This document shows positions 3,273 to 22,925 of a stretch of 60,695 bases of DNA, piece after piece. Position numbers and translations under genes: made by a program. The first letter of the stretch is position 1. Each line of letters begins with the position of its first letter. The DNA comes from Candidatus Solincola quzhuomuensis (GTDB lineage: Bacteria > Actinomycetota > Geothermincolia > Geothermincolales > RBG-13-55-18). Below the pieces are notes generated by a model. That model was not told the DNA's origin. It did no database searches and saw only the letters and a program-made list of their open reading frames with translations. The stretch covers positions 1 to 60,695 of the forward strand of contig JACVJF010000004.1 of NCBI GenBank assembly GCA_015711855.1, read 5' to 3'.

Positions 3273-3276
3273 GTCC

Positions 3277-5423: not shown

Positions 5424-6023
5424 TCAGGCGTTTCGCAGTCCTTTGGGGACGAGGGGGGCGAATGCCGCCGCCGCTGCGGCCTTGGCTAGGTCGACCAGGA
5501 TGAAGGGTTTAACCCCCAGTCTCCAAGCTAACGCGGCATTCTTCCCCTGCATGGAGAGCCACGTCCCGAGCCAGGTGGCCCCACAGGCGTATACGGCTGC
5601 CAGTCCGGCCAGGCAAGCCAGCGGCACGGAGAGCTTCCCCGGGAGACGCCGCCACCCTCGACCCGATAGGTTTCTCGAGATCCAGCCCGTGCAGCCCGCC
5701 GCCAAAATGAAGCCCCAGAGATACCCGCCCGTGGGGCCGAAAAGCACCAGAGGACCGGCGTGAGGAGGGGCGGCGAAGAAGGGAGCGCCACAGAATCCCA
5801 TGAGAAGGTAGACGGCTTGGCTGACCATTCCCCAAAAAGGCCCGAGCACTAGACCGGATAGGATGACGAAAAATAGCTGCATGGTCACCGGGACCGGGGA
5901 GAGGGGGATTCTGATCATGGCGCCTAGACCGGTGAGGGCGGCGAAGAGCACCGCCGTGGCGATCACCTCCGCGTCAATGGAGGAGGCTTTCGCCGGAACG
6001 CGTTTGGTCGATGAGATTTGCAT
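5424..6023 (-). CDS. bioY: BioY biotin transporter (ECF S-component)
   Basis: PVPVTMQ, YLLMG..GAP.F, GPTGGYLWGF and PFI..DLAK motifs; adjacent to biotin genes. Confidence 0.93.
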   Translation of the reverse strand: MQISSTKRVPAKASSIDAEVIATAVLFAALTGLGAMIRIPLSPVPVTMQLFFVILSGLVLGPFWGMVSQAVYLLMGFCGAPFFAAPPHAGPLVLFGPTGGYLWGFILAAGCTGWISRNLSGRGWRRLPGKLSVPLACLAGLAAVYACGATWLGTWLSMQGKNAALAWRLGVKPFILVDLAKAAAAAAFAPLVPKGLRNA

Positions 6024-6078: not shown

Positions 6079-6157
6079 GGGTTTTTCAGGATATAACTTT
6101 AGAAAAAGTGAACTTTTCTAAGGGCCGTTTCCAGCTTCCGTGAAAGGCGGCCGAAAG

Positions 6158-6925
6158 ATGGGAGCTTGGGATATTAGGGAATACGAGGTTCTGGATTCCA
6201 CCAACCTGGAGGCCCGTCGCCTACTCCTCGCCGGAGCTGGTGAGGGTCTGGTGGTGACCGCGGGACATCAAACCGCCGGGCGGGGAAGGTTGGATAGATG
6301 CTGGCTGGATCAACCGGGAAAAAGCCTGCTGGTCAGCATCGTTTTCGGCGACAGGGGCCTTTTTCTCGTTTCCGCCCTGGTGGGCTTGGCGGCCAGAGGG
6401 GCCATACGCGCCCTCGGAGGTGAGGGTCCCCTCCTGAAGTGGCCCAACGACCTGGTCTACGGAAGGCGGAAAGTGGGGGGGATCCTCAGCGAGGACTTCT
6501 CGGTAGGAGCTCGACGCTTCGTTATCGTGGGGTTGGGGATAAATCTGGGATATCTCCCCGGTGAGCTGCGGATTTCCGGAAAACTGGCCCCCACTTCCGT
6601 CCTAGTGGAAGAAGGGAGGATTTGGAAAAAGGAAGACGTGTTAAGCGTTTTTCTTCGAGAGGTTGAGGCGCGTTCCGTATTGATGGCGCAGGATCTATGG
6701 GCGGAATACGAAAAATGCTTGGCATACGTGGGGGAGACGGTGGAGGTGGAAGATTACGCTTTGTTTAACCGAAACGACTTTCCGAACCGGACTGGCAAGA
6801 AGCAGAGCGGCGGCGTCATCAAGGGGGTGCTCTTGGGGGTGGACGGGGAAGGCAACATGGTCATCCGGACGGAAAGCGGCCTTCATCGCGTGGCTTCCGG
6901 AGACCTGATCCCGCCGCCGGATTGA
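6158..6925 (+). CDS. birA: Biotin--protein ligase without N-terminal HTH (group I BirA)
   Basis: DSTN, QTAGRGR, KWPND, KVGGIL and GLGIN motifs; no DNA-binding domain. Confidence 0.93.
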   Translation: MGAWDIREYEVLDSTNLEARRLLLAGAGEGLVVTAGHQTAGRGRLDRCWLDQPGKSLLVSIVFGDRGLFLVSALVGLAARGAIRALGGEGPLLKWPNDLVYGRRKVGGILSEDFSVGARRFVIVGLGINLGYLPGELRISGKLAPTSVLVEEGRIWKKEDVLSVFLREVEARSVLMAQDLWAEYEKCLAYVGETVEVEDYALFNRNDFPNRTGKKQSGGVIKGVLLGVDGEGNMVIRTESGLHRVASGDLIPPPD

Positions 6926-7994: not shown

Positions 7995-8924
7995 TCAGCC
8001 GCCCACGGTGACCGTGAGGCTCCGCGAGGTGAAGATGTCCACGATTCCATACAGCTTTTCTTCAGGATATCCCGCGCCTTCGGGGAAGGGATATTCGAGG
8101 CCGAATATTCGATACTTGGCGCCCGCGTAAGGATGATAGGGGAGGATGTCCACCTCGCATTCCCGGCCGTTGCGGCACAAACCCCGGATGAAGTCGGCGG
8201 TACGGGAGAGGTTTTCCTCCCCGTCGTTGAACCCGGGGATGATGGGGATGCGGAAACGCAGCTCTCGGGCGTATTCCGCCAGCCGCCTGGCGTTCTCCAG
8301 GATGATCTCGTTGGAGGCGCCGCAGTGGGAGCGGTGCGCGGCGGAGTCCATGTGTTTGAGGTCCAACAGAAAGTAATCGGTAACCTCGATCATCCTCTCC
8401 AACGTTTCCCAGGCGGCGAAACCGCAGGTGTCCAAGGCCGTATTGAGTCCGCGCCCCTTGGCCTCCGCCAAAAGGTCGTAGGTGAACTCCGGCTGGGCCA
8501 GAGGCTCACCTCCGGAAACGGTCAGCCCTCCCCCCGAATGCTTATAGAAAGGCTTGTCCTTCTCCACCTCCGCAAGGACCTGGTCCACTGTCATCAGCTT
8601 GCCCCAGACCACGAGGGCCTCTTCCGGGCAGGCTTCGGCGCAGCGGAAACAGTCGATGCACCGTTCCCGGCGTATGCGGGGGAGACGAGGACCCTCCATC
8701 TCGACGGCTCCGGCGGGACATACCTCCAGGCATTTACCGCAACCCGTGCAGTTGTTGCGGTAGGGAAGAACTTCCGGGAATCGCCGGTTGCCCTCGGGAT
8801 TGTGGCACCAACGGCAGTTGAGCAGGCAACCTTTTAGAAACACCGTGGTCCGAATCCCCGGCCCGTCGCAGAGAGAATAGAACTGTATGTCGTTGACGTA
8901 TCCCGCCGTGTCCCTTCTTCCCAT
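7995..8924 (-). CDS. assD: Glycyl-radical enzyme activating enzyme (second copy, AssD-like)
   Basis: DGPGIRTTVFLKGCLLNCRWCHNPE radical SAM motif, two ferredoxin CxxCxxCxxxC insertions, SGGEP. Confidence 0.9.
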   Translation of the reverse strand: MGRRDTAGYVNDIQFYSLCDGPGIRTTVFLKGCLLNCRWCHNPEGNRRFPEVLPYRNNCTGCGKCLEVCPAGAVEMEGPRLPRIRRERCIDCFRCAEACPEEALVVWGKLMTVDQVLAEVEKDKPFYKHSGGGLTVSGGEPLAQPEFTYDLLAEAKGRGLNTALDTCGFAAWETLERMIEVTDYFLLDLKHMDSAAHRSHCGASNEIILENARRLAEYARELRFRIPIIPGFNDGEENLSRTADFIRGLCRNGRECEVDILPYHPYAGAKYRIFGLEYPFPEGAGYPEEKLYGIVDIFTSRSLTVTVGG

Positions 8925-8933: not shown

Positions 8934-9872
8934 TTATCCGCCGATAGTGGTGGCCAGACCTTGTTCTTCCAGGATGTCCTGCAAGTCGGCGATCTCGCTA
9001 GCCGCCAGGCTTTCCACGTCACGGTATTCCCATTCCCTTCCCAACCAGCGGTATTTGTCCTGGCACCAGTTGTGGAAGGGAAGGAGGTCTACCTGGATGA
9101 TGGAGGGACCCAGCCCGGCGAGGAAGCGGGCCACCTGCTCCATGTGTTCCGGGGAATCGTTGAAACCCGGGATGACCGGTATGCGCACGATCACGTCTGC
9201 GCCCACCTCCGCCAGGCGCCGGAGGTTGGCCAGGATGGGTGAGTTGTTCACCCCTGTACGCAGTAGATGCTGCTTGCCGCTGAGGCACTTGATGTCGTAG
9301 AGGAATATGTCCGTGTAGGGACGCATGGAATCCAGGATTTCCCATTCGCAAAAACCGCTCGTGTCCAAACAGTTGTGAATGCCCCGTTCCTTGGCCCCGC
9401 GCAGCAGCTCCCGGGTGAATTCGGGGAAGGCGGTCGGTTCTCCCCCCGTCAGGGTCATGCCTCCGCCGGAATTGATGTAGAAGGGCATGTCCCTTTCCAC
9501 CTCGTCGAGGATCTCCTCTACCGTCTTGGGTTCCCCGACGCGCACCAGTGCGCCGTAAAAGCAGGCCTCCACGCACTTCATGCAATGGTCGCAGCGGGTG
9601 AGGTCTATCTTGTAGTAGTGCTCGTCTTCCTCGTCACCGCGCAAGGCTATGGGTGGCTGGATGGCTCCCCGGGCACAGGAGTCGAAACACATCCCGCACT
9701 GCCTGCACAGTGAGGGTTTCCAGTATATCTCCGGATAGAAATGTATGCACTCCGGGTTGTGGCACCAGGCGCAGTTCAGCCTGCATCCCTTGACGAAAAC
9801 CGTGGTGCGGATGCCCGGGCCGTCGTTTATGGAATAGCGCTGGATGTTGGTGATCAAGACCTGTTGAGACAT
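8934..9872 (-). CDS. assD: Glycyl-radical enzyme activating enzyme (first copy, AssD/MasG-like)
   Basis: DGPGIRTTVFVKGCRLNCAWCHNPE, two ferredoxin-like cysteine clusters, TGGEP, LLPFH. ATG at 9872 after GGGAG. Confidence 0.9.
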   Translation of the reverse strand: MSQQVLITNIQRYSINDGPGIRTTVFVKGCRLNCAWCHNPECIHFYPEIYWKPSLCRQCGMCFDSCARGAIQPPIALRGDEEDEHYYKIDLTRCDHCMKCVEACFYGALVRVGEPKTVEEILDEVERDMPFYINSGGGMTLTGGEPTAFPEFTRELLRGAKERGIHNCLDTSGFCEWEILDSMRPYTDIFLYDIKCLSGKQHLLRTGVNNSPILANLRRLAEVGADVIVRIPVIPGFNDSPEHMEQVARFLAGLGPSIIQVDLLPFHNWCQDKYRWLGREWEYRDVESLAASEIADLQDILEEQGLATTIGG

Positions 9873-9948
9873 TAAAGGACTCCCTTTTCCTTCCTTCCTG
9901 CGCCGAGGCCGCCACGATGTGCCGTGCGGATAACCGGTGTCGCGCACG

Positions 9949-10128
9949 TCAGGCGTTCTCTCTCTGCAGTTGCTTCTCGGCCCTCTCCTCCTCCAGCTCG
10001 TTCACCACCACCCAGGCATAGCACTGCGGGCACTCGCGGTACGCGGTCTCCGCATCCAAGGTGGTGTTGTAGAGGTAGCGAAAGTCGGACTTCACTCCCT
10101 CATATCCGCAGTTCTCGCACTTGACCAC
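9949..10128 (-). CDS. masE: MasE/delta-like rubredoxin-type small subunit (paralogue 2), 59 aa
   Basis: Not in the ORF track. GTG start after GGAGGT: MVKCENCGYEGVKSDFRYLYNTTLDAETAYRECPQCYAWVVVNELEEERAEKQLQRENA*. The CxxCG...FRYxYN...RxCPxC...V.EL pattern resembles MasE as I recall it. Confidence 0.8.
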   Translation of the reverse strand: MVKCENCGYEGVKSDFRYLYNTTLDAETAYRECPQCYAWVVVNELEEERAEKQLQRENA

Positions 10129-10131: not shown

Positions 10132-10356
10132 TCATACCTCCCTGTTCTTACCGCTGAATTTCCTACCCCATATGTCGCTCAGGCCCCATGGTCTTTCGTC
10201 TTCGCTTTCTCCGTCTCTCTGCTCCAGTTCGTCCACGGGAAACGGGTTGAGGCAGATGGGGCACCGACGAATGGTGACGGGTCCCACCTCTGCCTGGGCC
10301 ACGAGTTGGAACTCCCCCAGAGACCCGTAGCGACCGCATCTCGGACAGACGACCAT
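10132..10356 (-). CDS. MasE/delta-like rubredoxin-type small subunit (paralogue 1)
   Basis: MVVCPRCG...EF...RRCPICLNPFPVDELE...PWG; packed between the beta-like gene and paralogue 2. Confidence 0.72.
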   Translation of the reverse strand: MVVCPRCGRYGSLGEFQLVAQAEVGPVTIRRCPICLNPFPVDELEQRDGESEDERPWGLSDIWGRKFSGKNREV

Positions 10357-10372
10357 GATGCTCGTGAGAAGG

Positions 10373-10672
10373 CTATTTCTCCTCTATCTGCCTCTGCGGA
10401 CGGAATTGAGGATCCCACATGAACTCGCTGGTATCCGTCCGGACCCGGTCGATCTCCTTGTAATGCGGGCAGTCGCTGGCATCGGTGTTGTCGAAGACCG
10501 GCTTGTTCTTCTCCCCGATCTTGATGGCCGTGCACAACCCGTCGCCTGCCGCCGATGCGGAGTTCTGCCGGAAGTTACTGCACATGGCGCAAGCCTTCTC
10601 CGGCATCTCCCGGCGTCCCTTGGAGATGGCTCCCTGGAGCCACTGCTGCCGCAGCTGTTCCCAATCGCTCAT
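10373..10672 (-). CDS. assB: Fumarate-adding enzyme beta-like Fe-S small subunit (AssB/MasB-like)
   Basis: 99 aa with four Cys (CAMC...GDGLC...DCPHY) spaced like FAE small subunits; immediately downstream of the alpha-subunit gene. Confidence 0.75.
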   Translation of the reverse strand: MSDWEQLRQQWLQGAISKGRREMPEKACAMCSNFRQNSASAAGDGLCTAIKIGEKNKPVFDNTDASDCPHYKEIDRVRTDTSEFMWDPQFRPQRQIEEK

Positions 10673-10736: not shown

Positions 10737-13226
10737 TCAAACGCCGAGCTCCTGCACGTTGCGGGCGATGATGGTGTCCTGGGTCTTCTTGTTCAGGTCC
10801 ACGAAGTGGGCACTGTATCCGGCGATACGCACGATGAGCTCGGGGTACTTTTCGGGTTCCCTCTGGGCGGCCTTCAGGGTCTCGTTATCCACCATGTTGA
10901 ACTGCACGTGGTCGATCCCCAGCTCGGCCCAGGTCTTGATGTAGGAGTGCCAGATGTGGAAACCCTTTTCGCCGGCCAACTGCTGCGGGGACAGCCTTTG
11001 GTTGAGCAGGGTCGCCCGCACGTCTCCTATGTGGTCGATCTTGGCCACCGAGCGCAGGACGGCCGTGGGCCCTTTCTTGTCCAGGCCCGCTCCGGGAGAG
11101 CAGCCGCCGTCGTACAGGGTATCGCCCAGCCTCCTGCCGTTGGGCAGGGCCCACACCTTGGTGGCGTTGGTCACGTAAGCCGCGATGTTCTCCGGCAGCG
11201 GAGGCCAGGGGTTCCCGGTGGGATCCTTAATCTCCCAGGAGTGCTTGGCCACGTCGCGGTGGCAACGCACGTGTATCTGATCCACGTAGTCGTCGTCGTT
11301 GCCCCACTTGGGAGCGCGCACGAAATCCATGCGCATCTCCTCGTACCCCTCCCAGTTGTTCCTGAGGGCCTCGATGAGCTGGGCCATGGTGTACTTCTTC
11401 TCGTCGAAAACCAACTTCTTTACCGCGGCCAAGCTGTCGCCCGTCTCCATCCAGGCGAAGAAGGTGATCCAGGAATTGCCGCGTTCCGAGGGATGGGAGG
11501 AGTCCACCCCCAGCTCCACGCACCGTTCGTACAGGCCCGAAAGTAGCGGCCTGGGATCCAGGAATTGGGCCATGTAACGGCCTCCGTTGGTCAGCTTGAC
11601 CAGCGTGTCCATCATCCACTTGACCTGGGTGTACCAAGCCTGATAGAGCTCCTCGAAGGTCTCGAACTTGGAGGCGTCACCGGTGTGGGGCCCGAACTGC
11701 ATCTGGAGCACGTTGTCGTAACCGTCGAAGAGTGCGTATTCGATGGCCTTGGCGGCGATGATGGTGGCGTTGGCCATGCGGAAGGGCTGGCACCCCAGCT
11801 TGGTGTCCGGGCAGGGAGACATGCAGGCCTGGTGCACCCAGCGCCGCGCCTCCCGCAGGGGATGCTTGTGCCAGTGCATGGCGTTGGTGATGAGGATGGG
11901 GTCGTTGCGCATGGACGGATACCCCAAGCCCTGGCGAATGCACTCGAACACCTCCCGGAGCGTCTTCATCCTCACGTTCGGATGGTAGCGGAAGGCGAAG
12001 GTGGGGTTGGCCACCCTGACCAAGCGGGCCGCCTCCAAAAGGCAGTCGGTCATGTCGTTGCAGGCGTCGGTGCCGTCCTCGTTGACCCCTCCTATAGTCC
12101 ACACCCAGGTCCCGGTGATTCCCTGCAGGGTATCGCGGGCCAGCATCAGCCAGAACCACCCTACCTCATAGCAGCGGATGAGAAACTCCCCGGTGAGGTC
12201 CAGGGCTTCTTCGTGGGTGAGGACTTTATCCTGGTTGACGTCCTTGTCGTAGAAAGGCCCGTGCCAGTAATCGGGGCGGGCGGGCCAGGCTCCCTCGCAG
12301 GCCTCGTAGCGGCAGGCGATCTGGATGAAGTGGTCGAACTGGAGGGACTCGTGAAGGTGCTCCGGGGGCTTGGCAGGAACCTTCCAGCAGACCTCGGCGA
12401 TGCGCAGGAGCTCTTCCTTGCGCTTGGGATCGGTCTCGAAGTTCTCCGCGATTATCTTGGCCAGGCGGCTGTAACGTCGGGCCCAGCGAATGACCGCCTC
12501 CAGCACCACCTTCATGGACTTCCAGACGTCGAGTTTCTCGTAATAAGGAAGGTCTTCCGGGTCGGGGACCTTGTTGTAGATGCGGTCCTCCGCCTCCTTT
12601 ATGCGCTCGTCGATCTCGGCGATTATTCCCTCCAGACCCAGTCGGAACATGTAATCCCACTGCTTGGTGGCGTATCCTATGCGGGAGATGGGAAGACCCC
12701 AGCCTATGACCCCGGTGAGGAGCTTCACGATCTCCTCGGGCGGCACCAAGTTGAAGACCTTGGCCCCTGTGGTCTGAGGGTTCCAGTAATCGCAGAGCTC
12801 TCGGATGAGCTTCAGGTTCTCGTCCACCGGTTCAGGTATGACCGTCCGGTCGTTGTAGAGGTCCTCGTTGAGTAGGAAGAGGATCTCCGGGTGCCAGACG
12901 ATGGTGTGGGGCCGGGAGCCCAAGTACCCCATTATCTGGGCATGGTCCTGGATGAATATGGTGATGTTGTCGAAGACGTTGGCAAGGGCCTTGGCGTAGC
13001 GCATGCGCAGTGAGTCGTGTTCGTTCGCCTTAAAGGCCTCGGTGAACAGGACCGCTCGCTCAAGGTCGACCTTTACCCCAGGCTGATAGCCCGATCCCTT
13101 GGCTCCCTTCTTCCATACCGCCTTGCGCAGGTAATCCAGCCTTTTGGACCTCTTGTGTTCCGCCCACCACCACCATTGTCCGCTCTTTTCGATCTCCTCG
13201 ATGGTTCTCGTTTCCACCGCAGCCAT
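10737..13226 (-). CDS. assA: Alkylsuccinate synthase alpha subunit (AssA/MasD), glycyl-radical fumarate-adding enzyme
   Basis: About 829 aa PFL-family protein. Cys loop HQACMSPCP is followed by PFRMA (position of the fumarate-binding Arg). Gly loop is VRIAGYSAHF. N-terminal WWW.AE..RSKRLDYLRK.VWKKG is AssA/MasD-like rather than BssA-like. Confidence 0.92.
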   Translation of the reverse strand: MAAVETRTIEEIEKSGQWWWWAEHKRSKRLDYLRKAVWKKGAKGSGYQPGVKVDLERAVLFTEAFKANEHDSLRMRYAKALANVFDNITIFIQDHAQIMGYLGSRPHTIVWHPEILFLLNEDLYNDRTVIPEPVDENLKLIRELCDYWNPQTTGAKVFNLVPPEEIVKLLTGVIGWGLPISRIGYATKQWDYMFRLGLEGIIAEIDERIKEAEDRIYNKVPDPEDLPYYEKLDVWKSMKVVLEAVIRWARRYSRLAKIIAENFETDPKRKEELLRIAEVCWKVPAKPPEHLHESLQFDHFIQIACRYEACEGAWPARPDYWHGPFYDKDVNQDKVLTHEEALDLTGEFLIRCYEVGWFWLMLARDTLQGITGTWVWTIGGVNEDGTDACNDMTDCLLEAARLVRVANPTFAFRYHPNVRMKTLREVFECIRQGLGYPSMRNDPILITNAMHWHKHPLREARRWVHQACMSPCPDTKLGCQPFRMANATIIAAKAIEYALFDGYDNVLQMQFGPHTGDASKFETFEELYQAWYTQVKWMMDTLVKLTNGGRYMAQFLDPRPLLSGLYERCVELGVDSSHPSERGNSWITFFAWMETGDSLAAVKKLVFDEKKYTMAQLIEALRNNWEGYEEMRMDFVRAPKWGNDDDYVDQIHVRCHRDVAKHSWEIKDPTGNPWPPLPENIAAYVTNATKVWALPNGRRLGDTLYDGGCSPGAGLDKKGPTAVLRSVAKIDHIGDVRATLLNQRLSPQQLAGEKGFHIWHSYIKTWAELGIDHVQFNMVDNETLKAAQREPEKYPELIVRIAGYSAHFVDLNKKTQDTIIARNVQELGV

Positions 13227-13607
13227 TTTCAACCCCCTTATCTCTCGTCTTTCTTACGGGAATCGTCAGCTGGCTTTGCCGGCACGAAAAGGCTCCGTGA
13301 TCGTTTCCCCCAAAGCCGCTTACCGCCATCCCCCCTCTCCTCTCCGTCGGTCCCGCGTGACCTCTCCAAGTAAAGCGTCGAAGAAAAGCCCTTTGGACAA
13401 CTCTCCGTTGCTGCGTTGCGGCGATGCCTTGTGCGGACCTTTTCTCGTGCTGGGGTGCGTCTGCTGCGAAGAAAGGTAGATGCTGTGCAAGAAATTGTTC
13501 GATCGTCGCTTACCTACTCATTCCCTCAAAAAATTCAACTTGTATTTAGTAACCAGTTCTTAATTTTTATTATATTTCCTAATAAACTGGTATGTTAATT
13601 TGCCTTA

Positions 13608-13636
13608 ATTTTAGTAAAAGTGCACTAAATTTTCAA
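13608..13636 (-). promoter_or_regulatory. Putative sigma70-type promoter of the ass operon
   Basis: Minus strand TTGAAA (13636-13631), 17-nt spacer, TAAAAT (13613-13608), inside a strongly AT-rich island. Confidence 0.6.
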
Positions 13637-13860: not shown

Positions 13861-14661
13861 CTAACGCCCCTTGAACACGGGATCCCGCTTCTCTCGAAAA
13901 GCCGCCAAACCCTCCCTGGCGTCCTCGCTGGCCAGAGCTCGTCCCATCACGGCGTTGGCTTCCTCGCGTTCCTCCTCGGTCAGCGCCCGTGGCTGGGAGA
14001 TCATCTTGAGCAGTCGCTTGTGACCGGCCAGGGACAGGGGGGCGTTGGAAGCCAGGCGGTGGGCCAGATTCTCGGTGAAAGCCTCCAGTTCCTCATCGGG
14101 GACGAGATAGTCCAGCATCCCCATCTCGAATGCTTCCCGGGCCTCGAAGAGCTCGGCGGTGAGGAACACCTTCTTCGTGCGGGCCAGCCCCAGATTGCGT
14201 AGGAAGCGGTGTAGACCTTCCGGCGGGTAGACAATGCCCAGGCGAGCCGGGGGCATGCCCATGCGGCAGTTCTCCGACCCCACCCGCAGGTCGCAGGCCA
14301 TGCTGGTCTCGCATCCGGCCCCCACGCAGTAGCCCCTGATCATGGCGATGACCGGGAAGGGGCAGTCCTCGATGGCCTCCAACCCGTACTGCAGGGGACC
14401 CTTGGCCTCTATCTGCTTCTGGACCTCCTCGGGGATGCCCTCGGGCACGGCAGAGAGGTCCATACCGGCGGAAAAAGCCTTATCTCCGGATCCTCGAAGC
14501 ACGGCGCAGCGTACCGTCCCCCTCTCGGCCAAGTCCTGCAGGGCCCGAGCCAGGGAAATGAGTAGGGGGACGGATAGCGCGTTCCTGCGCTTCGGCCGGT
14601 TGATGGTCAGGAAAGCCAGCGGTTCCCTGATGTCCACCAGAAGCTCTTCGGCATCGCTCAT
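13861..14661 (-). CDS. Crotonase-superfamily protein, ScpB/methylmalonyl-CoA decarboxylase-like
   Basis: NRPKRRNAL, FSAGMDL, GAGCE and EG..AFREKR.P.F motifs. The second catalytic Glu position reads PPARLGIVY. Confidence 0.85.
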   Translation of the reverse strand: MSDAEELLVDIREPLAFLTINRPKRRNALSVPLLISLARALQDLAERGTVRCAVLRGSGDKAFSAGMDLSAVPEGIPEEVQKQIEAKGPLQYGLEAIEDCPFPVIAMIRGYCVGAGCETSMACDLRVGSENCRMGMPPARLGIVYPPEGLHRFLRNLGLARTKKVFLTAELFEAREAFEMGMLDYLVPDEELEAFTENLAHRLASNAPLSLAGHKRLLKMISQPRALTEEEREEANAVMGRALASEDAREGLAAFREKRDPVFKGR

Positions 14662-15098: not shown

Positions 15099-16646
15099 TC
15101 AGGAAGAGGCCCCGCCGTAGAGCTTGCGCAGTTCCTTCTTCAGGATCTTGCCGGTGAGGGTGCGGGGGATGGCCTCCACGAAGGTTATCTTCTTGGGTAT
15201 CTTGTAGCGGGCGAGCTTCCCCTCGCAGAAGGCCTCCATCTCCTCCATGGTGAGGGGGTCATCCGGGTTCTCCAGAAGGATCAGGGCGTGACCCACCTCA
15301 CCCCATTTCTCGTCCGGCATGCCGATGACCGCCACGTCCTTGACCTTGGGGTGCTCCATGAGCACCTTCTCCACCTCGGCGGGATAGATGTTCTCTCCGC
15401 CGGAGATGATCATGTCCTTCTTGCGGTCCACGACGTAGATGTACCCGTCCTCGTCCACGGTGGCCAGATCCCCGTAGTGGAACCATCCATCTTTCATCGC
15501 CTCCGCGGTCTCCTCGGGCATGTTCCAATAGCCCAACATCACGTAAGGGCCGCGGGAGCATATCTCCCCCACCTCGCCGGACCCCGGCCTCACCTCCGTG
15601 CCGTCCTCCTTGAGCACCTTCACCTCGGCGTGGAACATGGGGATGCCCGCGCTGCCGATCTTTTCCATGTTGGAACAGGAAAGCACGATGGAAGTCTCCG
15701 TGCACCCGAAGACCTGGATGAGGAGGGGCACCTTCATCTTCTCCACGATGCGGTCCAGTAGCTCCCGGGAGGCGGGAGCACCCCCTATCCCCACCCCCTT
15801 GAGGGAGGAAAGGTCGTACTGGGAGAAGCTGGGGACGTCCAGCATCATCTGGAGCATGGTGGGCACGGCGCCGAAGTGGGTGACCCGGTGGCGGTCGATG
15901 ATCTGTAGGGCCTCCTCCGGGTTCCAGAATCTCTGGAATATTATGGTACCTCCGATGTAGAAGGTGGGCATGGTGATGATGTTCAGGCCCCCGGAGTGAA
16001 AGAGGGGTATGGAGACCAGGGAGACGGCGTTGATGTCGAAAAGCAGCTCCAGGGTGTCGTTGAAGGTGTTCCAGAAGGTCTTGCGGTGGGGGAGCACAGC
16101 CCCTTTGGCCCGGCCGGTGGTCCCGGAGGTGTACATGATCATCTGGGGGTCCTCCATGTCTGGCGGTTCGGGTACCGCGGGTTCCTCTTCCCCGAAACCG
16201 GCCAACCACTCCTCGTAGGGGCGGCTGAAGTCGGGGACCGGGTCCCCCGCCGTGGCCAAGATCTCTATGGGTTCGCGGTAGAGCTCCCTCAGCTGACCAA
16301 CCGTGCCCGCAAACTCCGGGTGGAAGAAGAAGGCCCGGGGGTTGGTGTCCTTGAAGACGTACTCCAGTTCTTGGGGTGTGAGGCGGAAGTTGAGGGGGAT
16401 GAAGATGAACCCCGTCTTCGCACAGGCGAAGTACACCTCCATGAACTCGATGCTGTTGAAGAAGAGGGCGGCCACCCGGTCTCCTTTCTTCAGGCCCGCC
16501 TGGAGGAGCCCGTTGGCCACCTGGTTTACGCGTCCGTTGAACTCCGTATAGGTGAGAGCGCGATCCCCGGCTATGAAGGCCGTCTTGTCCTTGGTGAGAG
16601 GAAAGACAGCCCTCTTTAAAGCCCAGTTGCCCACGTTCACGATCAT
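15099..16646 (-). CDS. Acyl-CoA synthetase (AMP-forming; AssK-like candidate)
   Basis: YTSGTTGRAKG, FGCTET, GDL, DRKKDMIISGGENIYPAEVE and GKILK adenylation motifs. Confidence 0.92.
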   Translation of the reverse strand: MIVNVGNWALKRAVFPLTKDKTAFIAGDRALTYTEFNGRVNQVANGLLQAGLKKGDRVAALFFNSIEFMEVYFACAKTGFIFIPLNFRLTPQELEYVFKDTNPRAFFFHPEFAGTVGQLRELYREPIEILATAGDPVPDFSRPYEEWLAGFGEEEPAVPEPPDMEDPQMIMYTSGTTGRAKGAVLPHRKTFWNTFNDTLELLFDINAVSLVSIPLFHSGGLNIITMPTFYIGGTIIFQRFWNPEEALQIIDRHRVTHFGAVPTMLQMMLDVPSFSQYDLSSLKGVGIGGAPASRELLDRIVEKMKVPLLIQVFGCTETSIVLSCSNMEKIGSAGIPMFHAEVKVLKEDGTEVRPGSGEVGEICSRGPYVMLGYWNMPEETAEAMKDGWFHYGDLATVDEDGYIYVVDRKKDMIISGGENIYPAEVEKVLMEHPKVKDVAVIGMPDEKWGEVGHALILLENPDDPLTMEEMEAFCEGKLARYKIPKKITFVEAIPRTLTGKILKKELRKLYGGASS

Positions 16647-16831
16647 CACCCCCGTCAATCCCTGCTTCTCCGGACCCTGGCGAAGGCTTTCATGGCGGGC
16701 AGGCCGGAAAGAGGACCTAATATTGGGAGCTTCATGTCTCGCCTCTTTCTTCCCCGGACCGCACTTCCGCGGTAGGGAGGACGCGAATCCGAGGATCCGG
16801 TTTTGCCCAGCTCCGACAGCCCACGGGCAAA

Positions 16832-16926: not shown

Positions 16927-17177
16927 CTTAAATAATATAAAATTCTACCTAATGAATATTTCTTTACACCGCCTTTTTTCTCTGATAACATACCCTGCAA
17001 AAGGGGTGGATGCGAGGCATCGGCAGCATTGCGGTTCTCACGCTACGATCGAGATAAAAACGGAGAATGCCGGGGGCGAACCGCCTTCCCCGTCGTCCGC
17101 TCCTTTCGGCGTTGAATGTCAAGCGGAACACGCACTGTTGCAGGAGGATCCGTAACGCGTATCGAGGGGGGATGGGT

Positions 17178-18539
17178 ATGAACGAGTTGGCGGAGGTGGG
17201 AAAGTTCGTCTGCGGGCTGAGGTACGAGGACGTTCCGGGCGAGGTGATGGAAGCGGCGAAGCTTCCCGTCATCGACTGCCTCGGGGTGACGGTGGCCGGC
17301 CTTGAAGACGAGGGATCGCGCATCGTGGCCGAATGGGTGGATTCCGTAGGCGGCAGGGAGGAGGCTACCGTTTTCTACGGGTTCAGGAGGAGCGCTGCGC
17401 CTCTGGCGGCTCTGGCCAACGGCACCGCCGCTCATGCCCTGGATTACGACGACGTGAGTTTCCGCATGATGGGACATCCTTCCGTGGCCCTGGTTCCGGC
17501 CGTCGTGGCCCTAGGGGAGGTGCTGGGCTCGTCAGGGAAGGATTTCCTGCTGGCCTACGTGGCCGGGCTGGAGGTGGCCGCAAAGGTGGGAGCGGCCCTG
17601 GGCGGCAACTCCTACATGCTCGGATGGCACCATACCAGCACCTTGGGAGTCCTGGGCGCCGCCGCTTCAAGCGGGAAGTTGCTGGGGCTGGACGAGGAGA
17701 AGATGACCCACGCTCTGGGCATCTCCTGCTCCATGGCCATGGGCATCCGGGCCAACTTCGGGACCATGACCAAACCTCTTCACGCAGGAGCCGCGGCCAT
17801 GAACGGGGTCATCGCCGCTCAGCTCGCCGACCGTGGGTTTACCGCCAATCCCGACGCCCTCTACGGCGAGAACGGTTTCGCGCGTGCCTTCACCTCAGAC
17901 CTGGAAAAGGCGGAGGAACTGCTTAAAAGCCTAGGAGAGCCCTACGAGCTCACGGATCCCGGCCTCTCCTTCAAGCCTTATCCCTGCTGCCGGGGACCGC
18001 AGGGGGCCATCGACGCAGCTTTGGCGGCCAGGGAGGAGTGGAAGAAAAAGGGGAAGATCGATCCCTCGGATGTGGAGAGAGTGGAATGCCGGGTGCCCTC
18101 CTGGTTGAGGTCGGTACTCGTATATCACGAGCCGAAGACCGGCACGGAAGGGAAATTCAGCCTGGAGTTCTGCGTGGCCGCCGCCCTCCTGGAAGGCAAG
18201 GTGGGCGTGGGCCAGTTCAGGGACGAGGTGGTGACCTCGGAGCCGGTGGCGGAGCTCATACGCCGCTTTGACTGGCAGGACCTGGAAGGGGAGATCACCA
18301 GTCCCTTCGCCTCCGAGGTGGTGGTCCATCTGAAGTCGGGGGATAAGGCGACGGGCAAAGCGGAGAGACCCCTGGGCGAGCCGGGCAATCCCATGAGCCA
18401 GGAGCAAATTCACGACAAGTATCGGGAATGCGTGGGGAGCATCCTGGGCTACGCGGTCGCCGACTCCACCTTGGAGATGCTGCGGAACCTGGAGAGGCTG
18501 GACGACGTGAACAGCCTGGTACGCGCCTACCGGGGATGA
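17178..18539 (+). CDS. MmgE/PrpD family protein (iminodisuccinate-epimerase-like)
   Basis: ANGTAAHALDYDD, GHPS, Y..GWH, KPLHAG, KPYPCC and GEPGNPMS motifs. Confidence 0.92.
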   Translation: MNELAEVGKFVCGLRYEDVPGEVMEAAKLPVIDCLGVTVAGLEDEGSRIVAEWVDSVGGREEATVFYGFRRSAAPLAALANGTAAHALDYDDVSFRMMGHPSVALVPAVVALGEVLGSSGKDFLLAYVAGLEVAAKVGAALGGNSYMLGWHHTSTLGVLGAAASSGKLLGLDEEKMTHALGISCSMAMGIRANFGTMTKPLHAGAAAMNGVIAAQLADRGFTANPDALYGENGFARAFTSDLEKAEELLKSLGEPYELTDPGLSFKPYPCCRGPQGAIDAALAAREEWKKKGKIDPSDVERVECRVPSWLRSVLVYHEPKTGTEGKFSLEFCVAAALLEGKVGVGQFRDEVVTSEPVAELIRRFDWQDLEGEITSPFASEVVVHLKSGDKATGKAERPLGEPGNPMSQEQIHDKYRECVGSILGYAVADSTLEMLRNLERLDDVNSLVRAYRG

Positions 18540-18587: not shown

Positions 18588-19004
18588 CTAAGAAGACGTC
18601 CCCAAACGGGTGCGTATGAAATCCGCCACCTGCGAGATGTAGGTCCCGGAGACGAAGACCTCGGCCACCCCCATCTCCTTGAGCTTGGGGATGTCCTCGG
18701 CCGGGATGATCCCGCCCACGAGGACCATCTTGTCCTCCACGCCCTTTTCCCGGAGGAGGGACATGATCCGACGCACTATGCTCAGATGGGCTCCGGAGAG
18801 GATGGATAGACCGATCACGTCCACGTCCTCGTCCACGGCGGCGTTGACGATCTCCTCCGGGGTGCGCCTCAAGCCGGTGTAGATCACCTCGAATCCCTCG
18901 TCCTTCAGGCCGTAGGCGATGACCTTGGCCCCTTGGTCGTGCCCGTCCAGGCCCGGTTTGGCTATGAGCACCCGGATAACCTTTCCACCCGTTTTGGCTT
19001 CCAT
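18588..19004 (-). CDS. Acyl-CoA mutase cobalamin-binding small subunit
   Basis: [12 protein letters not shown] (DxHxxG), SILSGAH and GGIIP motifs. Confidence 0.95.
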
Positions 19005-19018: not shown

Positions 19019-21043
19019 TCAATCCATCACCGTCTCGCACCTCAGGAGCTCCACCTTAAGGCCCGTTTCCCTGGCGATATCGAGGTATGCCCGACCGGTT
19101 AGGTCCCTTCCCCAGCGGCTGAGATGGAAGGGGGAGGAGGGAATGATCACCAGGTCGGGCTTCTCGCCGTGTTTTTCCATCCATTCTTGGAGGTGGTCTA
19201 TGTAGTCCTTCACCACCAGCAGGTCTCCGAGCATTATGTTTCCCCCGAAGAAGCGATTCTCCGGAACGCTCAGTCGCAGTTCCGAGCCCTCCGGGAGGTT
19301 GATCGGGTTTTCCTCCAGCAGCTGTTCCAGGGTGGGGCGGACAAGACGCGAGGTGAGGAGAAGGACCAGGCGTGCCTCCGATCGGCGCACCATGCCCTCC
19401 AGGACCCGGAGGTAGGAGACTCGCAGACCGCTCCCCATGAAGGCCACCCCCAAGTGGGTTCCGGTGTGAAAGTCGAAAGGATAAGAGTACCGGCGAGTCT
19501 CTCCGCCTAGCTCCACCGCTTTGCCATCCCTTCTCACCAGGAGAGAGACCTTTTCCTCCCCGCTATTCTGAAGCAGGGTTAGCAAGTCGCGGGCCTGGGG
19601 ACGGTTGAGCACGTTGATCCCGTTAATCCGAAGGATGACGTCTCCCGGTCTGAGTCCCCAGGATTTTGCCGGAGAGTTGGGTACCAGCCCGATCACCTCC
19701 GGAAGGTTCTTTCGCTCCCGGGTGAGGTTCTCCTCGTAAAGCGCGGGGCTCAACACCAGAGGGCAGGGAAGGTCGCTGCGCATTTCCCCTACCAGCCGTA
19801 CCACGGCGCCCCATACCTCCTCGGTGTCGAAGAGCGGTGTCGAGGAGAAGAACCTAGAGTAACCGGGAAGGTTGACCTGAACCAGCCGCGCCCCGCAGCC
19901 CGCGGCGTAGGCGCAGGTCCTCTCCAAGTCCCGCAGCATCTCCTCCAAGGAGGGTTCCGGCCAGGCCACCACGGTGACGGCGAAGGGAATGGCCGCATCC
20001 GCCAGCCTGGGGAGAGAGTGGATGGCCGTCTCGGGTCTCCGGTCCCCCATGAGGAAGGAGCGCCGGGCGGGGTCGGAGCTGTTGAGGGAGACGTCCAGAA
20101 AGAGAGGGGCTAGGCCTGCCAGCTCCTCGACGAAAGCCTTATCCAGGCGGCAGCCGTTGGTGGCCAGACGGAAGGGCGCGTCGGTCCTCTCCCGCAGGCG
20201 GCGGAGCAGAGGTATGATGCGCGGATGGGCCAGCGCCTCACGGGGTCCGCCGAAGGTGGGGAAAAGACCTCGCCGCGCCAGAGGGCGGTAGTGGGCGATC
20301 CTGGCTTCCAGTCTCTTCCAGTCGCTTACCGGGTCGGCTGGCGGCTGCATGAGGGAGGGGAGGGATCCTCGGTGATAACAGAACCGGCATCGACAATCGC
20401 ACCGGTCGGCGGCATGGAGTATCACGTCCTCCGCGCTGTCCACCGGGGCGTCCGTCCAGTCGGAAAGGCGGCGCAGCCGGAACCCGTCCACCTCCACCGG
20501 CTGGCCCTCGCGCTCCAGCTGCACCAGCGAGAGCAGGCTCTCCAGCTGGCGGGCCAGGAAGTCCAGGCGGGGCTCGTAGAGGGCCGCGTTGGCCCGACTC
20601 AGGAAAGGCGGGACCGGATACCCCCGGGAGTTGGCCCTTTTCGACGGGCCGGCTATGCAGGAGCGCTCCTGGGGAGGACTTATAATTCTCGGTCGTGCTT
20701 GGCGATTTTCGTCCGCCTCGTAGGATTCGGTTACCGAATCGTTTTTCGAAGTGGGATATATGTCGTGCACCGCCCCGTCCGGGCCCAGAAAGCGGAAGCC
20801 GTCCACCTCCACCTCCCTACCTCCCTCCAGGAGGCGTATCACGGACAAGAGGTTGCGGAGTTGCTCGCGTATCAGCTGCACGTGAGGATCCGGTCCCCGC
20901 GACCCGCCTCCGGCTTGTCGCAAGGGATAGCGGAAAAGAGCCCCTTCGACCTCCTCCGCCCCCGTTGTCGCAGCGGGGGCGGTATTTCGGGCCGCCGACT
21001 CGCGCTCCGCCGAGAGCCGCTGACGTTCCATCCTCGTCACCAC
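19019..21043 (-). CDS. Radical SAM protein with PDZ-like and C-terminal DUF512-like domains
   Basis: CDCRCRFC motif; PDZ-like SPA...GLRPGDVILRING; DUF512-like ENRFFGGNIMLGDLL...D. Start position uncertain. Confidence 0.75.
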   Translation of the reverse strand: MVTRMERQRLSAERESAARNTAPAATTGAEEVEGALFRYPLRQAGGGSRGPDPHVQLIREQLRNLLSVIRLLEGGREVEVDGFRFLGPDGAVHDIYPTSKNDSVTESYEADENRQARPRIISPPQERSCIAGPSKRANSRGYPVPPFLSRANAALYEPRLDFLARQLESLLSLVQLEREGQPVEVDGFRLRRLSDWTDAPVDSAEDVILHAADRCDCRCRFCYHRGSLPSLMQPPADPVSDWKRLEARIAHYRPLARRGLFPTFGGPREALAHPRIIPLLRRLRERTDAPFRLATNGCRLDKAFVEELAGLAPLFLDVSLNSSDPARRSFLMGDRRPETAIHSLPRLADAAIPFAVTVVAWPEPSLEEMLRDLERTCAYAAGCGARLVQVNLPGYSRFFSSTPLFDTEEVWGAVVRLVGEMRSDLPCPLVLSPALYEENLTRERKNLPEVIGLVPNSPAKSWGLRPGDVILRINGINVLNRPQARDLLTLLQNSGEEKVSLLVRRDGKAVELGGETRRYSYPFDFHTGTHLGVAFMGSGLRVSYLRVLEGMVRRSEARLVLLLTSRLVRPTLEQLLEENPINLPEGSELRLSVPENRFFGGNIMLGDLLVVKDYIDHLQEWMEKHGEKPDLVIIPSSPFHLSRWGRDLTGRAYLDIARETGLKVELLRCETVMD

Positions 21044-21161: not shown

Positions 21162-22925
21162 TCAGAAGGGGGACACGGCCTGGTATTCCCCGAAGACCTC
21201 CCGCAGCACGTCGCATATCTCCCCCTCGGTCACGTAGGCCTTCACGCACTGGATGAGGTGAGGGAGCAGGTTCTCCTCCTCCTTCCGGGCCAAGTCTTCC
21301 AGCTCCTTCAGGAGGCGAGCCACCTCCCGGCCGTCGCGGTTCCTCTTGATCTCCGCCAGGCGGGCCTTCTGCCTCTCCTCCGCGCGCTCCCTCCTCTCTG
21401 GGTCGTAGGGGTTGGGGACCAGGCGGTTGGTGGTCACCTCCAGCTCGTGCTCGCCGGTGAAGCAGTTGACCCCCACCACCAGGCGTTCGCCCCGCTCTAT
21501 GGCTCGCTGCCGCTCATAGGCGCTGCGGGATATCTCCCTCTGCATGTACCCGTTTTCTATGGCCGCCACCGCTCCGCCCATCTTCTCGATCTTCTCCAGT
21601 TCCTCCCAGGCGGCGTTCTCGATCTCGTCGGTGAGGGACTCCATGCAGTAGGAACCGGCGAATGGATCGGTGTACTCCAGGAGGCGCGCCTCGCAGGCGA
21701 TGATTCTCCCCGCGTCCTGGGCCAGCTGCAGGGCTTCCATGCTCCACCCCAACCCCAGGGGCTCGTCGTAGGGCGGGAAGGGGAGGGGCCGTCCTCCGGA
21801 GAGGGCGCTGGCCACCGCCCCGATGACCGCCCGGGTGAGGTTGTTCAGCGGCCGTTGCAAGGTGGTGGAGGAGGGCCCGATGTGAGCCCCGATGGCCTGG
21901 CGGATGCGCATGCTCCGCTCGTCCCGGGCCCCGAAGCGCTCCTTGAGTATCCGGGCGTACATGCGGCGGGCCGCCCGCTGGAAAGCGATTTCCTTGAGCA
22001 TCTCCATGGAGCCCCCGAAGGCGTTGAAGGTGAAGCGGGGGGCGAACTCGTCCACCTCGAGTCCGGCTTCCACCCCCACCTTGAGATATTCCACGGCGAT
22101 GGCCATGGAGAAGGCCAGGTCCTGCTCCCGGGTGGCTCCGGCCTCCCTTATGTGGTAGCCGCCTATGCTGGTGATGTTCACGTTGGGCATGTGCCTGGTT
22201 ATGAAGACCAGGCTGTCCCGGAAGAGGCGCAGGGCGTGTCTCGGCGGGAAAATGTAGGTGCCGCGGGCGATGTATTCCTTGAGGATGTCGTTCTGGGGGG
22301 TGGCCCGCAACTTATCCAGGGGGATGCCCCGCTTCTCGGCCAGGGCGGCGTACATGGCGATGATCACGTTGGCCGGGGCGTTGATGGTGAAGTTGGAGGC
22401 GATGCGGTCGAGGTTTAAATCCCCCTGATAAGGCTCGTAGATGATCTCGAAGTCGGCCAGGGTGTCCACGCACACCCCCACCTTGCCCACCTCCCCCTCG
22501 GCCAGGGGATGGTCGGAGTCGTAGCCGCACTGGGTGGGGAGGTCGAAGGCCAGGTTGGGGCCCCCTCGGCTCCCTTGCTCGAGAAGACCCTTGTAGTAAT
22601 CGCGGGTGTCCTCCGGGGTGCCGTATCCGGAATAGATGGCGGCGCGGGTCTGCCCTCCGGCTCCGGGGATCTCCCCCTTTCCCCCCGCCAGAGAGGCCAG
22701 TCGAGCCAGCCCGGCCATGGGTTCTATGGGAAAGGTACCGGCGGTGAAGGGATAGGTGCCCGGGAAGCCCACCTTCTCCAGGAAGTCGAAGGGCTCGATG
22801 TCCAGAGGGGTGAAGAAGCGGCTGCTCTCCTTGTTCAGGTAGGGAAACTTCTGAATGGCTTTGGCCAAGGGCCCTTCCTCCCAGGCGCGCCGCGCCTCGC
22901 TTATCTTTTCCAGATACTCGTTCAT
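21162..22925 (-). CDS. Acyl-CoA mutase large subunit, divergent methylmalonyl-CoA mutase family
   Basis: PGTYPFT.G, AFDLPTQCGYDSD, GEVGKVGV, QNDILKEYIARGTYIFPP, GYHIREAG, DPFAGSY and VVGVN motifs. ATG at 22925 after AAGGGG. Confidence 0.93.
   Translation of the reverse strand: MNEYLEKISEARRAWEEGPLAKAIQKFPYLNKESSRFFTPLDIEPFDFLEKVGFPGTYPFTAGTFPIEPMAGLARLASLAGGKGEIPGAGGQTRAAIYSGYGTPEDTRDYYKGLLEQGSRGGPNLAFDLPTQCGYDSDHPLAEGEVGKVGVCVDTLADFEIIYEPYQGDLNLDRIASNFTINAPANVIIAMYAALAEKRGIPLDKLRATPQNDILKEYIARGTYIFPPRHALRLFRDSLVFITRHMPNVNITSIGGYHIREAGATREQDLAFSMAIAVEYLKVGVEAGLEVDEFAPRFTFNAFGGSMEMLKEIAFQRAARRMYARILKERFGARDERSMRIRQAIGAHIGPSSTTLQRPLNNLTRAVIGAVASALSGGRPLPFPPYDEPLGLGWSMEALQLAQDAGRIIACEARLLEYTDPFAGSYCMESLTDEIENAAWEELEKIEKMGGAVAAIENGYMQREISRSAYERQRAIERGERLVVGVNCFTGEHELEVTTNRLVPNPYDPERRERAEERQKARLAEIKRNRDGREVARLLKELEDLARKEEENLLPHLIQCVKAYVTEGEICDVLREVFGEYQAVSPF

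Follow-up and report, generated by a model that had tools for sequence, protein, structure and literature searches.

Candidatus Solincola quzhuomuensis, a member of the Actinomycetota, carries on contig JACVJF010000004.1 a stretch of 60,695 nucleotides (the window; positions 1 to 60,695 of the forward strand) in which a crotonase gene, at 13861..14661 on the minus strand, stands beside the genes of an alkane-activating glycyl-radical enzyme. The open reading frame starts with ATG and encodes a full-length crotonase-fold protein of 266 amino acids, whose match to the Pfam family ECH_1 (170.1 bits against a cut-off of 27, residues 13-265) places it in the superfamily. A first-pass annotation, made from the DNA alone, had proposed that the protein resembles the E. 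coli methylmalonyl-coenzyme A (CoA) decarboxylase ScpB and performs the decarboxylation step of alkane degradation. Our analysis is consistent with this proposal: the protein, a Tyr-type crotonase, is a plausible biotin-independent (2-methylalkyl)malonyl-CoA decarboxylase whose step in the alkylsuccinate pathway would directly follow that of the B12-dependent mutase, an assignment in which we place about as much confidence as doubt. The strongest evidence for it is the gene context.

The neighbor of the crotonase gene on the same strand is assA (10737..13232), which encodes an 831-residue AssA/MasD, the catalytic glycyl-radical subunit of (1-methylalkyl)succinate synthase, with PFL-like and Gly_radical domains in Pfam and scores of 1118 bits to 9o8u_A and 569 bits to BssA (4pkc). 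The first-pass annotation placed the crotonase gene directly upstream of assA, and it does lie there, next to a true AssA/MasD gene and separated from it by 628 bp. That gap contains no terminator-like site, and it holds two matches to a sigma-70-like promoter within 13569..13636 on the minus strand (13598-13569, 11/12; 13636-13608, 10/12), which are consensus matches only, two against 0.5 expected. The position upstream of assA thus denotes adjacency and not necessarily co-transcription. No MasC-like reading frame was recognised in the gap, and no Rfam RNA family was found in 7000-24000.

Further genes of the synthase follow on the minus strand. These encode a small MasB/AssB-like Cys-rich subunit (10373..10672; 9o8u_B, E = 4e-10), a 74-residue CxxC...CxxC product that is weakly MasE-like (10132..10356; 9o8u_D, E = 0.025), a 59-residue MasE-like small subunit with the same CxxC...CxxC pattern (9949..10128; 9o8u_D, E = 1.7e-10), and two glycyl-radical activating enzymes with Radical_SAM and Fer4 domains, the first of them AssD-like (8934..9947) and the second at 7995..8924. 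Beyond them lies a biotin-related block annotated with Pfam, comprising a pyruvate-carboxylase-like pair on the minus strand (1932..5121; biotin carboxylase at 1932..3272 and the HMGL/PYC_OADA/biotinyl subunit at 3277..5121), BioY (5424..6023, minus strand) and a biotin-protein ligase (6140..6925, plus strand). Related genomes show both carboxylase subunits, BioY and the ligase in synteny with the ass genes.

On the other side of the crotonase gene stands an AssK-like AMP-forming acyl-CoA ligase (15099..16658, minus strand; AMP-binding, 295 bits; PRK06187, 510.6 bits, above its cut-off), followed by a MmgE/PrpD-family gene (17067..18539, plus strand). The product of the latter is classed by Pfam and scores 44.7 bits with the PrpD equivalog model, whose cut-off is 950; among solved structures it is closest to the iminodisuccinate (IDS) epimerase 2hp0 (228 bits), an enzyme whose substrate is a 2-substituted succinate, and then to IRG1/cis-aconitate decarboxylase. 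The mutase genes come next, all on the minus strand: the B12-binding small subunit (18588..19004; TIGR00640, 169.8 bits, above cut-off), a 674-residue radical-SAM/PDZ/DUF512-like protein identified with Pfam (19019..21043), and the large subunit of the acyl-CoA mutase (21162..23048; MM_CoA_mutase, 462 bits). The best solved relative of this large subunit is the 2-hydroxyisobutyryl-CoA mutase (HCM) 4r3u, at 356 bits, ahead of methylmalonyl-CoA mutases at 309 bits.

Active-site residues and predicted fold

Canonical enoyl-CoA hydratases carry two catalytic glutamates, in the motifs G-G-G-x-E and P-E..LG. The Solincola crotonase has a glutamate in the first of these positions (...CVGAGCETS..., Glu118) and departs from the pattern at the second, where it reads ...GMPPARLGIVYPPEG... 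When the protein is aligned with E. coli PaaF and with canonical paralogues of the same genome, Pro138 occupies the column of the second glutamate, and Tyr145 falls in the column after the LG turn. The first-pass annotation had described this segment (PPARLGIVY) as an altered glutamate motif and had likened it to TPVNLGVPY of ScpB, which also lacks the second glutamate and bears a tyrosine; the alignments bear out both statements. In the HMMER alignment to the ScpB structure 1ef8, 'gmpparlgivyppeg' pairs with 'smtpvnlgvpynlvg', which sets Tyr145 opposite the ScpB tyrosine and Pro138 opposite a ScpB proline, while 'gagce' pairs with 'ggafe', setting Glu118 opposite a ScpB glutamate. The pairing of 'fsagmd' with 'fsaghd' puts Met67 where ScpB has a histidine. 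We take this tyrosine and this histidine to be Tyr140 and His66 of ScpB, with the roles that the original structure paper gave them; the backbone amide of His66 presumably serves the oxyanion hole.

Conservation was assessed in 36 unique relatives whose genes adjoin AssA or a mutase (the context-linked relatives). Ser64, Met136, Pro137, Pro138 and Tyr145 are invariant in all 36, so the Pro138/Tyr145 motif is no chance feature, and these last two residues are almost invariant across a wider alignment of 62 sequences as well. Four of the five (Ser64, Met136, Pro138 and Tyr145) are common to ScpB and differ from PaaF and from one canonical paralogue of the same genome. Position 140 is basic throughout the context-linked relatives (Arg in 13, Lys in 23), unlike ScpB, which has Asn there. 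The oxyanion-hole glycine motifs, F-x-x-G-x-D and the G-x-G before the first glutamate, are intact: F63, G66, G110 and G114 vary little or not at all in two alignments, of 62 and 18 sequences. We define here an ass-island/mutase-linked clade of Tyr-crotonases by the motif M-P-P-A-[KR]-L-G-x-x-Y together with a neighboring acyl-CoA mutase, AssA or both; the motif and both neighbors are present at the Solincola locus.

Two other features to which the first-pass annotation drew attention carry less weight. The first glutamate that it noted is indeed present in the Solincola protein, but it is not a trait of the group, as position 118 is Glu in 20 and Asn in 16 of the context-linked relatives, and in the members from Desulfobacterota neither hydratase glutamate exists. 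Similarly, the C-terminal ending S-E-D..EG..AF.EKR.P.F.G does resemble that of ScpB, yet 3kqf, 5zai and 6lvp, three ordinary hydratase-family structures, show the same ending when aligned, so that it has no ScpB-specific weight.

These residues bear on the database name of the protein, enoyl-CoA hydratase, according to which it would act as a hydratase or isomerase in the beta-oxidation of 4-methyl-branched acyl-CoA. Glu118 agrees with such a role, and so do the best PDB sequence hits, which by a hair are hydratases, although the leading matches are practically tied (3kqf, 136 bits; 5zai, 134.9; 6lvp, 134.2; 4k2n, 133.7; 1ef8, 133.4). The structural-genomics protein 4k2n among them lacks the second glutamate and has a similar C-terminal segment; unlike the Solincola protein, it has no tyrosine at the aligned position ('isvvmaype'). 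Against a hydratase stand the proline that replaces the second glutamate in every context-linked relative and the asparagine that replaces the first in 16 of them, the canonical Glu/Glu crotonases encoded elsewhere in the source genome, a position in the tree apart from PaaF, PaaG and the Glu/Glu paralogues, and the presence of a separate crotonase type in the Desulfatibacillum alkenivorans and Smithella loci (L050 at 20067, L094 at 20212). Because the catalytic glutamates are not conserved, we consider a hydratase role very improbable.

The predicted structure points in the same direction. An AlphaFold2 model of the monomer, built from 62 sequences, has a mean predicted local distance difference test (pLDDT) score of 93.2 and a predicted TM-score (pTM) of 0.91, and among known structures this model superposes best on those of ScpB. 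The top TM-scores in Foldseek belong to ScpB entries: 1ef8_A at 0.88/0.91 with a root-mean-square deviation (rmsd) of 2.4 A, and 1ef9 and 6n92 at 0.87-0.90. For most hydratases the TM-score is 0.71-0.75 and the rmsd close to 18 A, as the C-terminal helices of these enzymes run in another direction; a few other crotonases (EchA6, 3p5m and 3pea), like ScpB, align with the model over about 245 residues. In the predicted monomer the C-terminal helical domain folds back on its own subunit, as in ScpB, and the superposition on 1ef8 is full-length. Canonical hydratases such as crotonase and PaaF thus have in common with the Solincola protein the fold, the oxyanion-hole glycine motifs and the C-terminal EKR.P.F, and differ from it in having both catalytic glutamates, no counterpart of Tyr145, a separate clade and a C-terminal domain placed elsewhere (rmsd about 18 A in Foldseek).

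Family placement

Profile searches associate the protein with methylmalonyl-CoA decarboxylase (MMCD) without making it a ScpB equivalog. Its top NCBIfam models are PRK06127 (211.4 bits, cut-off 291), PRK06144 (198.4, cut-off 272) and the MMCD model PRK11423 (184.3, cut-off 257), so that no curated cut-off is reached; E. coli ScpB itself scores 487.2 bits with PRK11423. This model is among the top three for the Solincola protein and for all five ass-linked crotonases of other phyla that were compared. PRK06127 is the top model for all six and the second-best for ScpB. Both PRK06127 and PRK06144 are called enoyl-CoA hydratase subfamilies, and we know of no characterised function for either. When the source genome was scanned with the MMCD model, the same reading frame came out best, at 183.8 bits, with the next best at 146.

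An exhaustive HMMER search returned 1227 representative proteins at E <= 1e-30. In an alignment of the 141 nearest full-length representatives and other sequences, the commonest patterns have Pro or Ala in the column of the second glutamate and Tyr in the column of Tyr145. Phylogenetic analysis under LG+C20 with 63 rows recovered a 52-row clade (support 98/98) that contains ScpB, the clade of the Solincola crotonase (10 rows, 100/99), a mutase/ass-linked clade (18 rows, 98/92) and an ass-linked group from Bacillota. PaaF, PaaG, CaiD, MenB and the Glu/Glu paralogues fall outside it. The phylogeny against ScpB and hydratases that the first-pass annotation had suggested as a check thus separates the protein from canonical hydratases and joins it with ScpB. 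Quicker trees unite the clade of the Solincola crotonase with the Desulfobacterota ass-linked clade, with Shimodaira-Hasegawa-like approximate likelihood ratio (SH-aLRT) supports of 95 and 86.

A distinct group of Tyr-bearing crotonases was also seen at the AssA loci L037 (Peptococcaceae), L089 (a metagenome-assembled genome labeled 'Deltaproteobacteria') and L102 (Desulfotomaculum). Its members read ...LVK[LI]GRIYYY..., have Asp in the column of the first glutamate and form a clade of their own (100/99).

The label ScpB-like therefore holds in part: the Tyr-bearing clade shared with ScpB and the best superposition of the model support it, and the score below the PRK11423 cut-off and the methionine in place of His66 do not. 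The Solincola crotonase is best classed with the ScpB kind by fold, key tyrosine and mutase pairing, and differs in its subclade, its presumed substrate and the missing histidine. ScpB/YgfG (1ef8, 1ef9, 6n92; PRK11423) acts on methylmalonyl-CoA and is partnered with a true methylmalonyl-CoA mutase, whereas the presumed substrate here is a long branched alkylmalonyl-CoA and the partner is an HCM-like mutase. Crotonase-fold, biotin-independent decarboxylation is also known from mammals, in which ECHDC1, an ethylmalonyl-CoA decarboxylase, acts on substituted malonyl-CoAs in metabolite repair. Other counterparts are the 'enoyl-CoA hydratases' in the ass islands of D. alkenivorans AK-01 and Smithella, which are 38-45% identical to the Solincola protein, carry the same MPPA[KR]LG..Y motif and have the same neighbors (AssA, an AssK-like ligase, a mutase and a PrpD-like gene). 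They are unlike it in having Asn for the first glutamate, Tyr or Phe at position 67 and, in some loci, a carboxyltransferase nearby.

The one characterised relative in the 52-row clade, ScpB, is a decarboxylase. As it is also the sole characterised member, and as the crotonase superfamily is mechanistically diverse, the protein might instead catalyze another reaction, such as thioester hydrolysis or epimerisation of alkylmalonyl-CoA, or serve as a non-catalytic partner of the mutase. One study reports that the product stereochemistry of ScpB mismatches that of its own mutase (PMC5512728), so a mutase partner alone is not enough to establish the reaction. Nothing specific suggests any of these roles, and with its conserved oxyanion-hole glycines and Tyr145 the protein is more readily understood as a catalytic enzyme that forms an enolate; we regard such alternatives, taken together, as improbable.

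Linkage to the mutase, to AssA and to carboxyltransferases

The source genome contains four mutase loci and nine crotonase genes, and the crotonase studied here is the only one that lies on the same contig as a mutase. The association extends well beyond this lineage. Since no stretch of the 62-sequence alignment was conserved enough, metagenomes were scanned with a motif of the 18-sequence alignment, which yielded 80 relatives, 21 of them with an adjoining mutase gene. Forty-five metagenomic relatives have less than 60% identity and at least 3 kb of sequence on one side; a mutase was found near 13 of these, a ligase type near 10, a PrpD-like gene near nine, a carboxyltransferase near three and AssA near only two. 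Across phyla, the mutase is the tighter partner of the crotonase than AssA. Pfam annotation of four metagenomic loci identified the genes of such cassettes, for example mutase, radical-SAM/PDZ protein, B12 subunit, family III CoA-transferase, crotonase and PrpD-like gene in L141; B12 subunit, CoA-transferase, crotonase and MeaB in L162; and, in L186, a PrpD-like gene followed at some distance by crotonase, ligase, MeaB, mutase and B12 subunit. These arrangements echo scpA-argK-scpB-scpC of E. coli, and the Solincola locus has the mutase partner that characterizes ScpB.

The gene for the radical-SAM/PDZ protein keeps its position between the mutase subunit genes in Actinomycetota, Desulfobacterales (L070, L076), Peptococcaceae (L037) and many metagenomic cassettes. 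MeaB occurs in addition to this protein or in place of it in some cassettes (L162, L186).

An enzyme of the step before the mutase would be expected to show the same tight linkage to mutase and CoA ligase, and this suits an alternative in which the crotonase is the C-2 epimerase of (1-methylalkyl)succinyl-CoA, reversibly removing the alpha-proton in the oxyanion hole and converting the diastereomer made by AssA into the one accepted by the mutase. In the MasD structure paper this step of the pathway is still left to 'an unknown epimerase' (PMC12358834), and the free carboxylate of the substrate could bind Tyr145 and Arg/Lys140. This function would, in addition, explain why a carboxyltransferase and the crotonase occur together in L050, L070 and L076. 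Against an epimerase stand the following points: the crotonase offers a single conserved acid/base candidate, Tyr145, with Glu118 replaced by Asn in 16 of the 36 context-linked relatives, where proton exchange on two faces usually needs two; the sole characterised relative in its clade is a decarboxylase; and no other decarboxylase candidate was found in the source genome. The same cassettes also hold other candidates for the epimerase, namely the IDS-epimerase-like PrpD protein and family III CoA-transferase/racemase-type genes (L131, L141, L162). Its likeness to IDS epimerase and its co-occurrence with mutase and crotonase across phyla make the PrpD-like protein a candidate for the 'unknown epimerase' of the pathway. 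We judge epimerisation by the crotonase to be unlikely, though it is the most serious of the alternatives.

The linkage to AssA was examined in 41 genomes, the source genome and 40 relatives of the same class. A homologue of the crotonase was found at E <= 1e-40 in 30 of them, 19 of these at an identity of at least 65%. True AssA (at least 84% identity, with three fragmented copies counted) is present in 15, and all 15 have the crotonase at 65% identity or above, within 1.8 kb of assA on one contig in 11 cases. The gene order is kept, running from the mutase large subunit through the radical-SAM/PDZ protein, B12 small subunit, PrpD-like protein, ligase, crotonase, AssA, AssB, activases, BirA and BioY to PycB and PycA, and the ligase adjoins the crotonase gene in every related locus of sufficient extent. 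The co-occurrence with assA to which the first-pass annotation looked is thus complete among AssA-positive relatives, and it recurs in part in other lineages.

For these, 76 loci from other genomes were analysed out of 460 AssA loci obtained by a search with an AssA alignment. A crotonase of any type was found in 19, and in 18 it bears the tyrosine and lacks the second glutamate. Fourteen of the 18 belong to the motif group of the Solincola crotonase, including those of both D. alkenivorans ass loci and of two Smithella loci, where the gene mostly adjoins the AssK-like ligase. A mutase gene is present as well in 13 of the 18. Where at least 20 kb of sequence was available (25 AssA loci), a mutase was found in 15, a Tyr-type crotonase in 12 (10 of them with a mutase) and a carboxyltransferase in seven.

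A second, unrelated crotonase type recurs downstream of the ligase in Desulfobacterota ass loci (L050, 20067-20852; L094, 20212-21003; L093; L046; L077). The four key columns read G-N-F-P in this type, and the NCBIfam models that match it best are those of short-chain enoyl-CoA hydratases.

A short-chain methyl- or ethylmalonyl-CoA decarboxylase like ScpB, serving propionate formation or metabolite repair without being specific to alkanes, would share the clade, motif and fold described above. It would also account for the homologues in the AssA-negative genomes G002, G016, G018 and G022 and for 11 more distant ones in further AssA-negative genomes, as well as for the many mutase-linked relatives with no AssA in the available flanking DNA. 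This explanation fits less well with the retention of the gene in all 15 AssA-positive relatives, mostly adjoining assA, or with a partner mutase that resembles 2-hydroxyisobutyryl-CoA mutase (356 bits) more than methylmalonyl-CoA mutase (309 bits) and belongs to the ass-island type shared with the D. alkenivorans and Smithella loci. The three other mutase loci of the source genome, moreover, have no crotonase on the contig. We consider a short-chain function to be a minor possibility. Homologues of 49-59% identity in AssA-negative relatives gave no pathway clue: their neighbors are a second crotonase, genes resembling nucleoside-diphosphate (NDP)-forming acyl-CoA synthetases and unrelated genes.

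The decarboxylation step of the pathway has been credited to a carboxyltransferase or a propionyl-CoA-carboxylase-type enzyme in PMC6776118 and PMC5756336. The biotin-dependent carboxyltransferases (12S/PccB/MmdA, PF01039) would achieve the same proposed net step, removal of the carboxyl group from (2-methylalkyl)malonyl-CoA, with a fold and mechanism unrelated to those of crotonases, in which CO2 is passed to biotin and the carboxyl group can be conserved. The source genome, an assembly of 187 contigs with 96.28% completeness, has no match to PF01039 (Carboxyl_trans), hence none for an acetyl-CoA-carboxylase carboxyltransferase of that family, and tblastn of this genome with the carboxyltransferase of a relative returned nothing. 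Either true loss or a gap in the assembly could explain this absence. Among the 15 AssA-positive genomes, PF01039 is missing from eight, partial in five and near full length in two (G008, G017); in four of the five partial cases there are two half-length hits, which we infer to be AccA/AccD-type. G001, a genome of the same genus, has two half-length matches.

Of the 76 AssA loci from other genomes, nine have a carboxyltransferase no more than 10 kb from AssA and 18 have a Tyr-type crotonase; the two occur together in four (L037, L050 of D. alkenivorans, L070 and L076). They are consequently not mutually exclusive and not simple alternatives, and in these four loci the crotonase may do something else. 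The view of the first-pass annotation that a crotonase takes over here a step usually ascribed to carboxyltransferases is thereby favored by the source genome and qualified by these loci. Our literature search found no proposal of a crotonase-type or biotin-independent decarboxylase in the alkane pathway; supplementary tables were not covered, and those of PMC13685792 and PMC6776118 may list ass-island orthogroups. A comparative paper of 2026 lists, in the part available, 'enoyl-CoA hydratases', MmgE/PrpD, a carboxyl transferase and a mutase among the ass-island genes of AK-01 and Smithella and gives these hydratases no function there (PMC13685792).

The proposed decarboxylation and a possible module

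From homology and gene linkage we infer the reaction, its substrate, the roles of the residues and the assignment of the other steps. AssA and its partners would add the alkane to fumarate, and the product would be epimerised, for which the IDS-epimerase-like MmgE/PrpD neighbor is the candidate. The neighboring AMP-forming ligase would then join the product to CoA, and the mutase would rearrange the CoA ester to (2-methylalkyl)malonyl-CoA. By analogy with ScpB, the crotonase would seat the thioester in its backbone oxyanion hole, with Tyr145 and probably Arg/Lys140 positioning the free carboxylate. CO2 would leave and the enolate be protonated, giving 4-methylalkanoyl-CoA for beta-oxidation. 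Because CO2 would be lost and not transferred, fumarate would be refilled through the adjacent pyruvate carboxylase, with BioY and BirA.

The fold, motif, clade, structural likeness to ScpB and gene linkage are direct results of this analysis, and several of the same results weigh against the decarboxylase. The protein is 33.6% identical to E. coli ScpB over 253 residues and, scoring 184.3 bits where PRK11423 asks for 257, is not a ScpB equivalog. The active site differs as well: in the 36 context-linked relatives position 67 is Met in 11, Tyr in 21 and Phe in four, and never His; position 118 alternates between Glu (20) and Asn (16); and no second conserved acid/base residue is evident. The structural margin is small, with a Z lead of only about 1.2 over the MenB rows, and the fold-back of the C-terminal domain is seen in a predicted monomer. 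In the careful tree the branching order among ScpB, the clade of the Solincola crotonase and the Desulfobacterota ass-linked clade is not resolved, and the union of the latter two is not rejected by the approximately unbiased (AU) test (p = 0.44). As for gene context, linkage to the mutase would be equally expected of an enzyme for the preceding or for the following step, and a C-2 epimerase would fit most of the evidence for decarboxylation; in a sister subclade of 23 rows, made up of Actinomycetota homologues, the gene is neighbored by a second crotonase and not by a mutase; four related genomes (G002, G016, G018, G022) have the crotonase without AssA; the lack of PF01039 was established on a draft assembly in 187 contigs; and the carboxyltransferase coexists with the Tyr-type crotonase in 4 of 76 AssA loci.

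If the crotonase is a decarboxylase, the genes around it may form a self-contained, biotin-independent module that converts 2-substituted succinates into branched acyl-CoAs. In this module an IDS-epimerase-like PrpD protein would serve as the alkylsuccinate epimerase, CoA would be attached by a ligase or by a family III CoA-transferase, the B12 mutase would be HCM-like and accompanied by a radical-SAM/PDZ protein or MeaB, and the Tyr-crotonase would be the decarboxylase; in the Actinomycetota lineage, pyruvate carboxylase would replace a transcarboxylase in regenerating fumarate. We put this broader scheme forward tentatively, with clearly less confidence than the decarboxylase assignment itself. 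Genes of the module occur with AssA in Actinomycetota, Desulfobacterota and Bacillota, and without AssA in many uncultured lineages.

The steps that follow fumarate addition (epimerisation, carbon-skeleton rearrangement and decarboxylation) have so far been assigned by genome inference only, and the crotonase offers a candidate that is small, soluble and conserved and does not have the hydratase residues. Its orthologues in a cultivated model degrader, D. alkenivorans, and in Smithella make the decarboxylation step directly testable in vitro. Should the assignment be correct, surveys that rely on marker genes and demand a carboxyltransferase among them would count too few complete alkane pathways. 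The energetics would change too, since the carboxyl group would be lost as CO2 and fumarate refilled by ATP-dependent pyruvate carboxylation.

The locus itself represents a complete ass/mas-type alkane-activation cluster in an Actinomycetota lineage (7995-23048 and 1932-6925, and the related genomes G001-G028). The available sections of the Ca. Solincola genome paper mention neither alkanes nor glycyl-radical enzymes (PMC12917137). Among public sequencing runs, no RNA run is listed and one DNA run contains 0.22 of the sampled words. In the related genome G018, where the ass genes are absent, the crotonase gene directly adjoins the biotin block. A second glycyl-radical enzyme, 28% identical to AssA, is encoded on another contig of the source genome (C64, 259-2538); about 2 kb from it lies another MmgE/PrpD gene (4554-5921), whose product is 30% identical to that of 17067..18539, and the two genes may represent a parallel pairing of a glycyl-radical enzyme with a PrpD-like protein.

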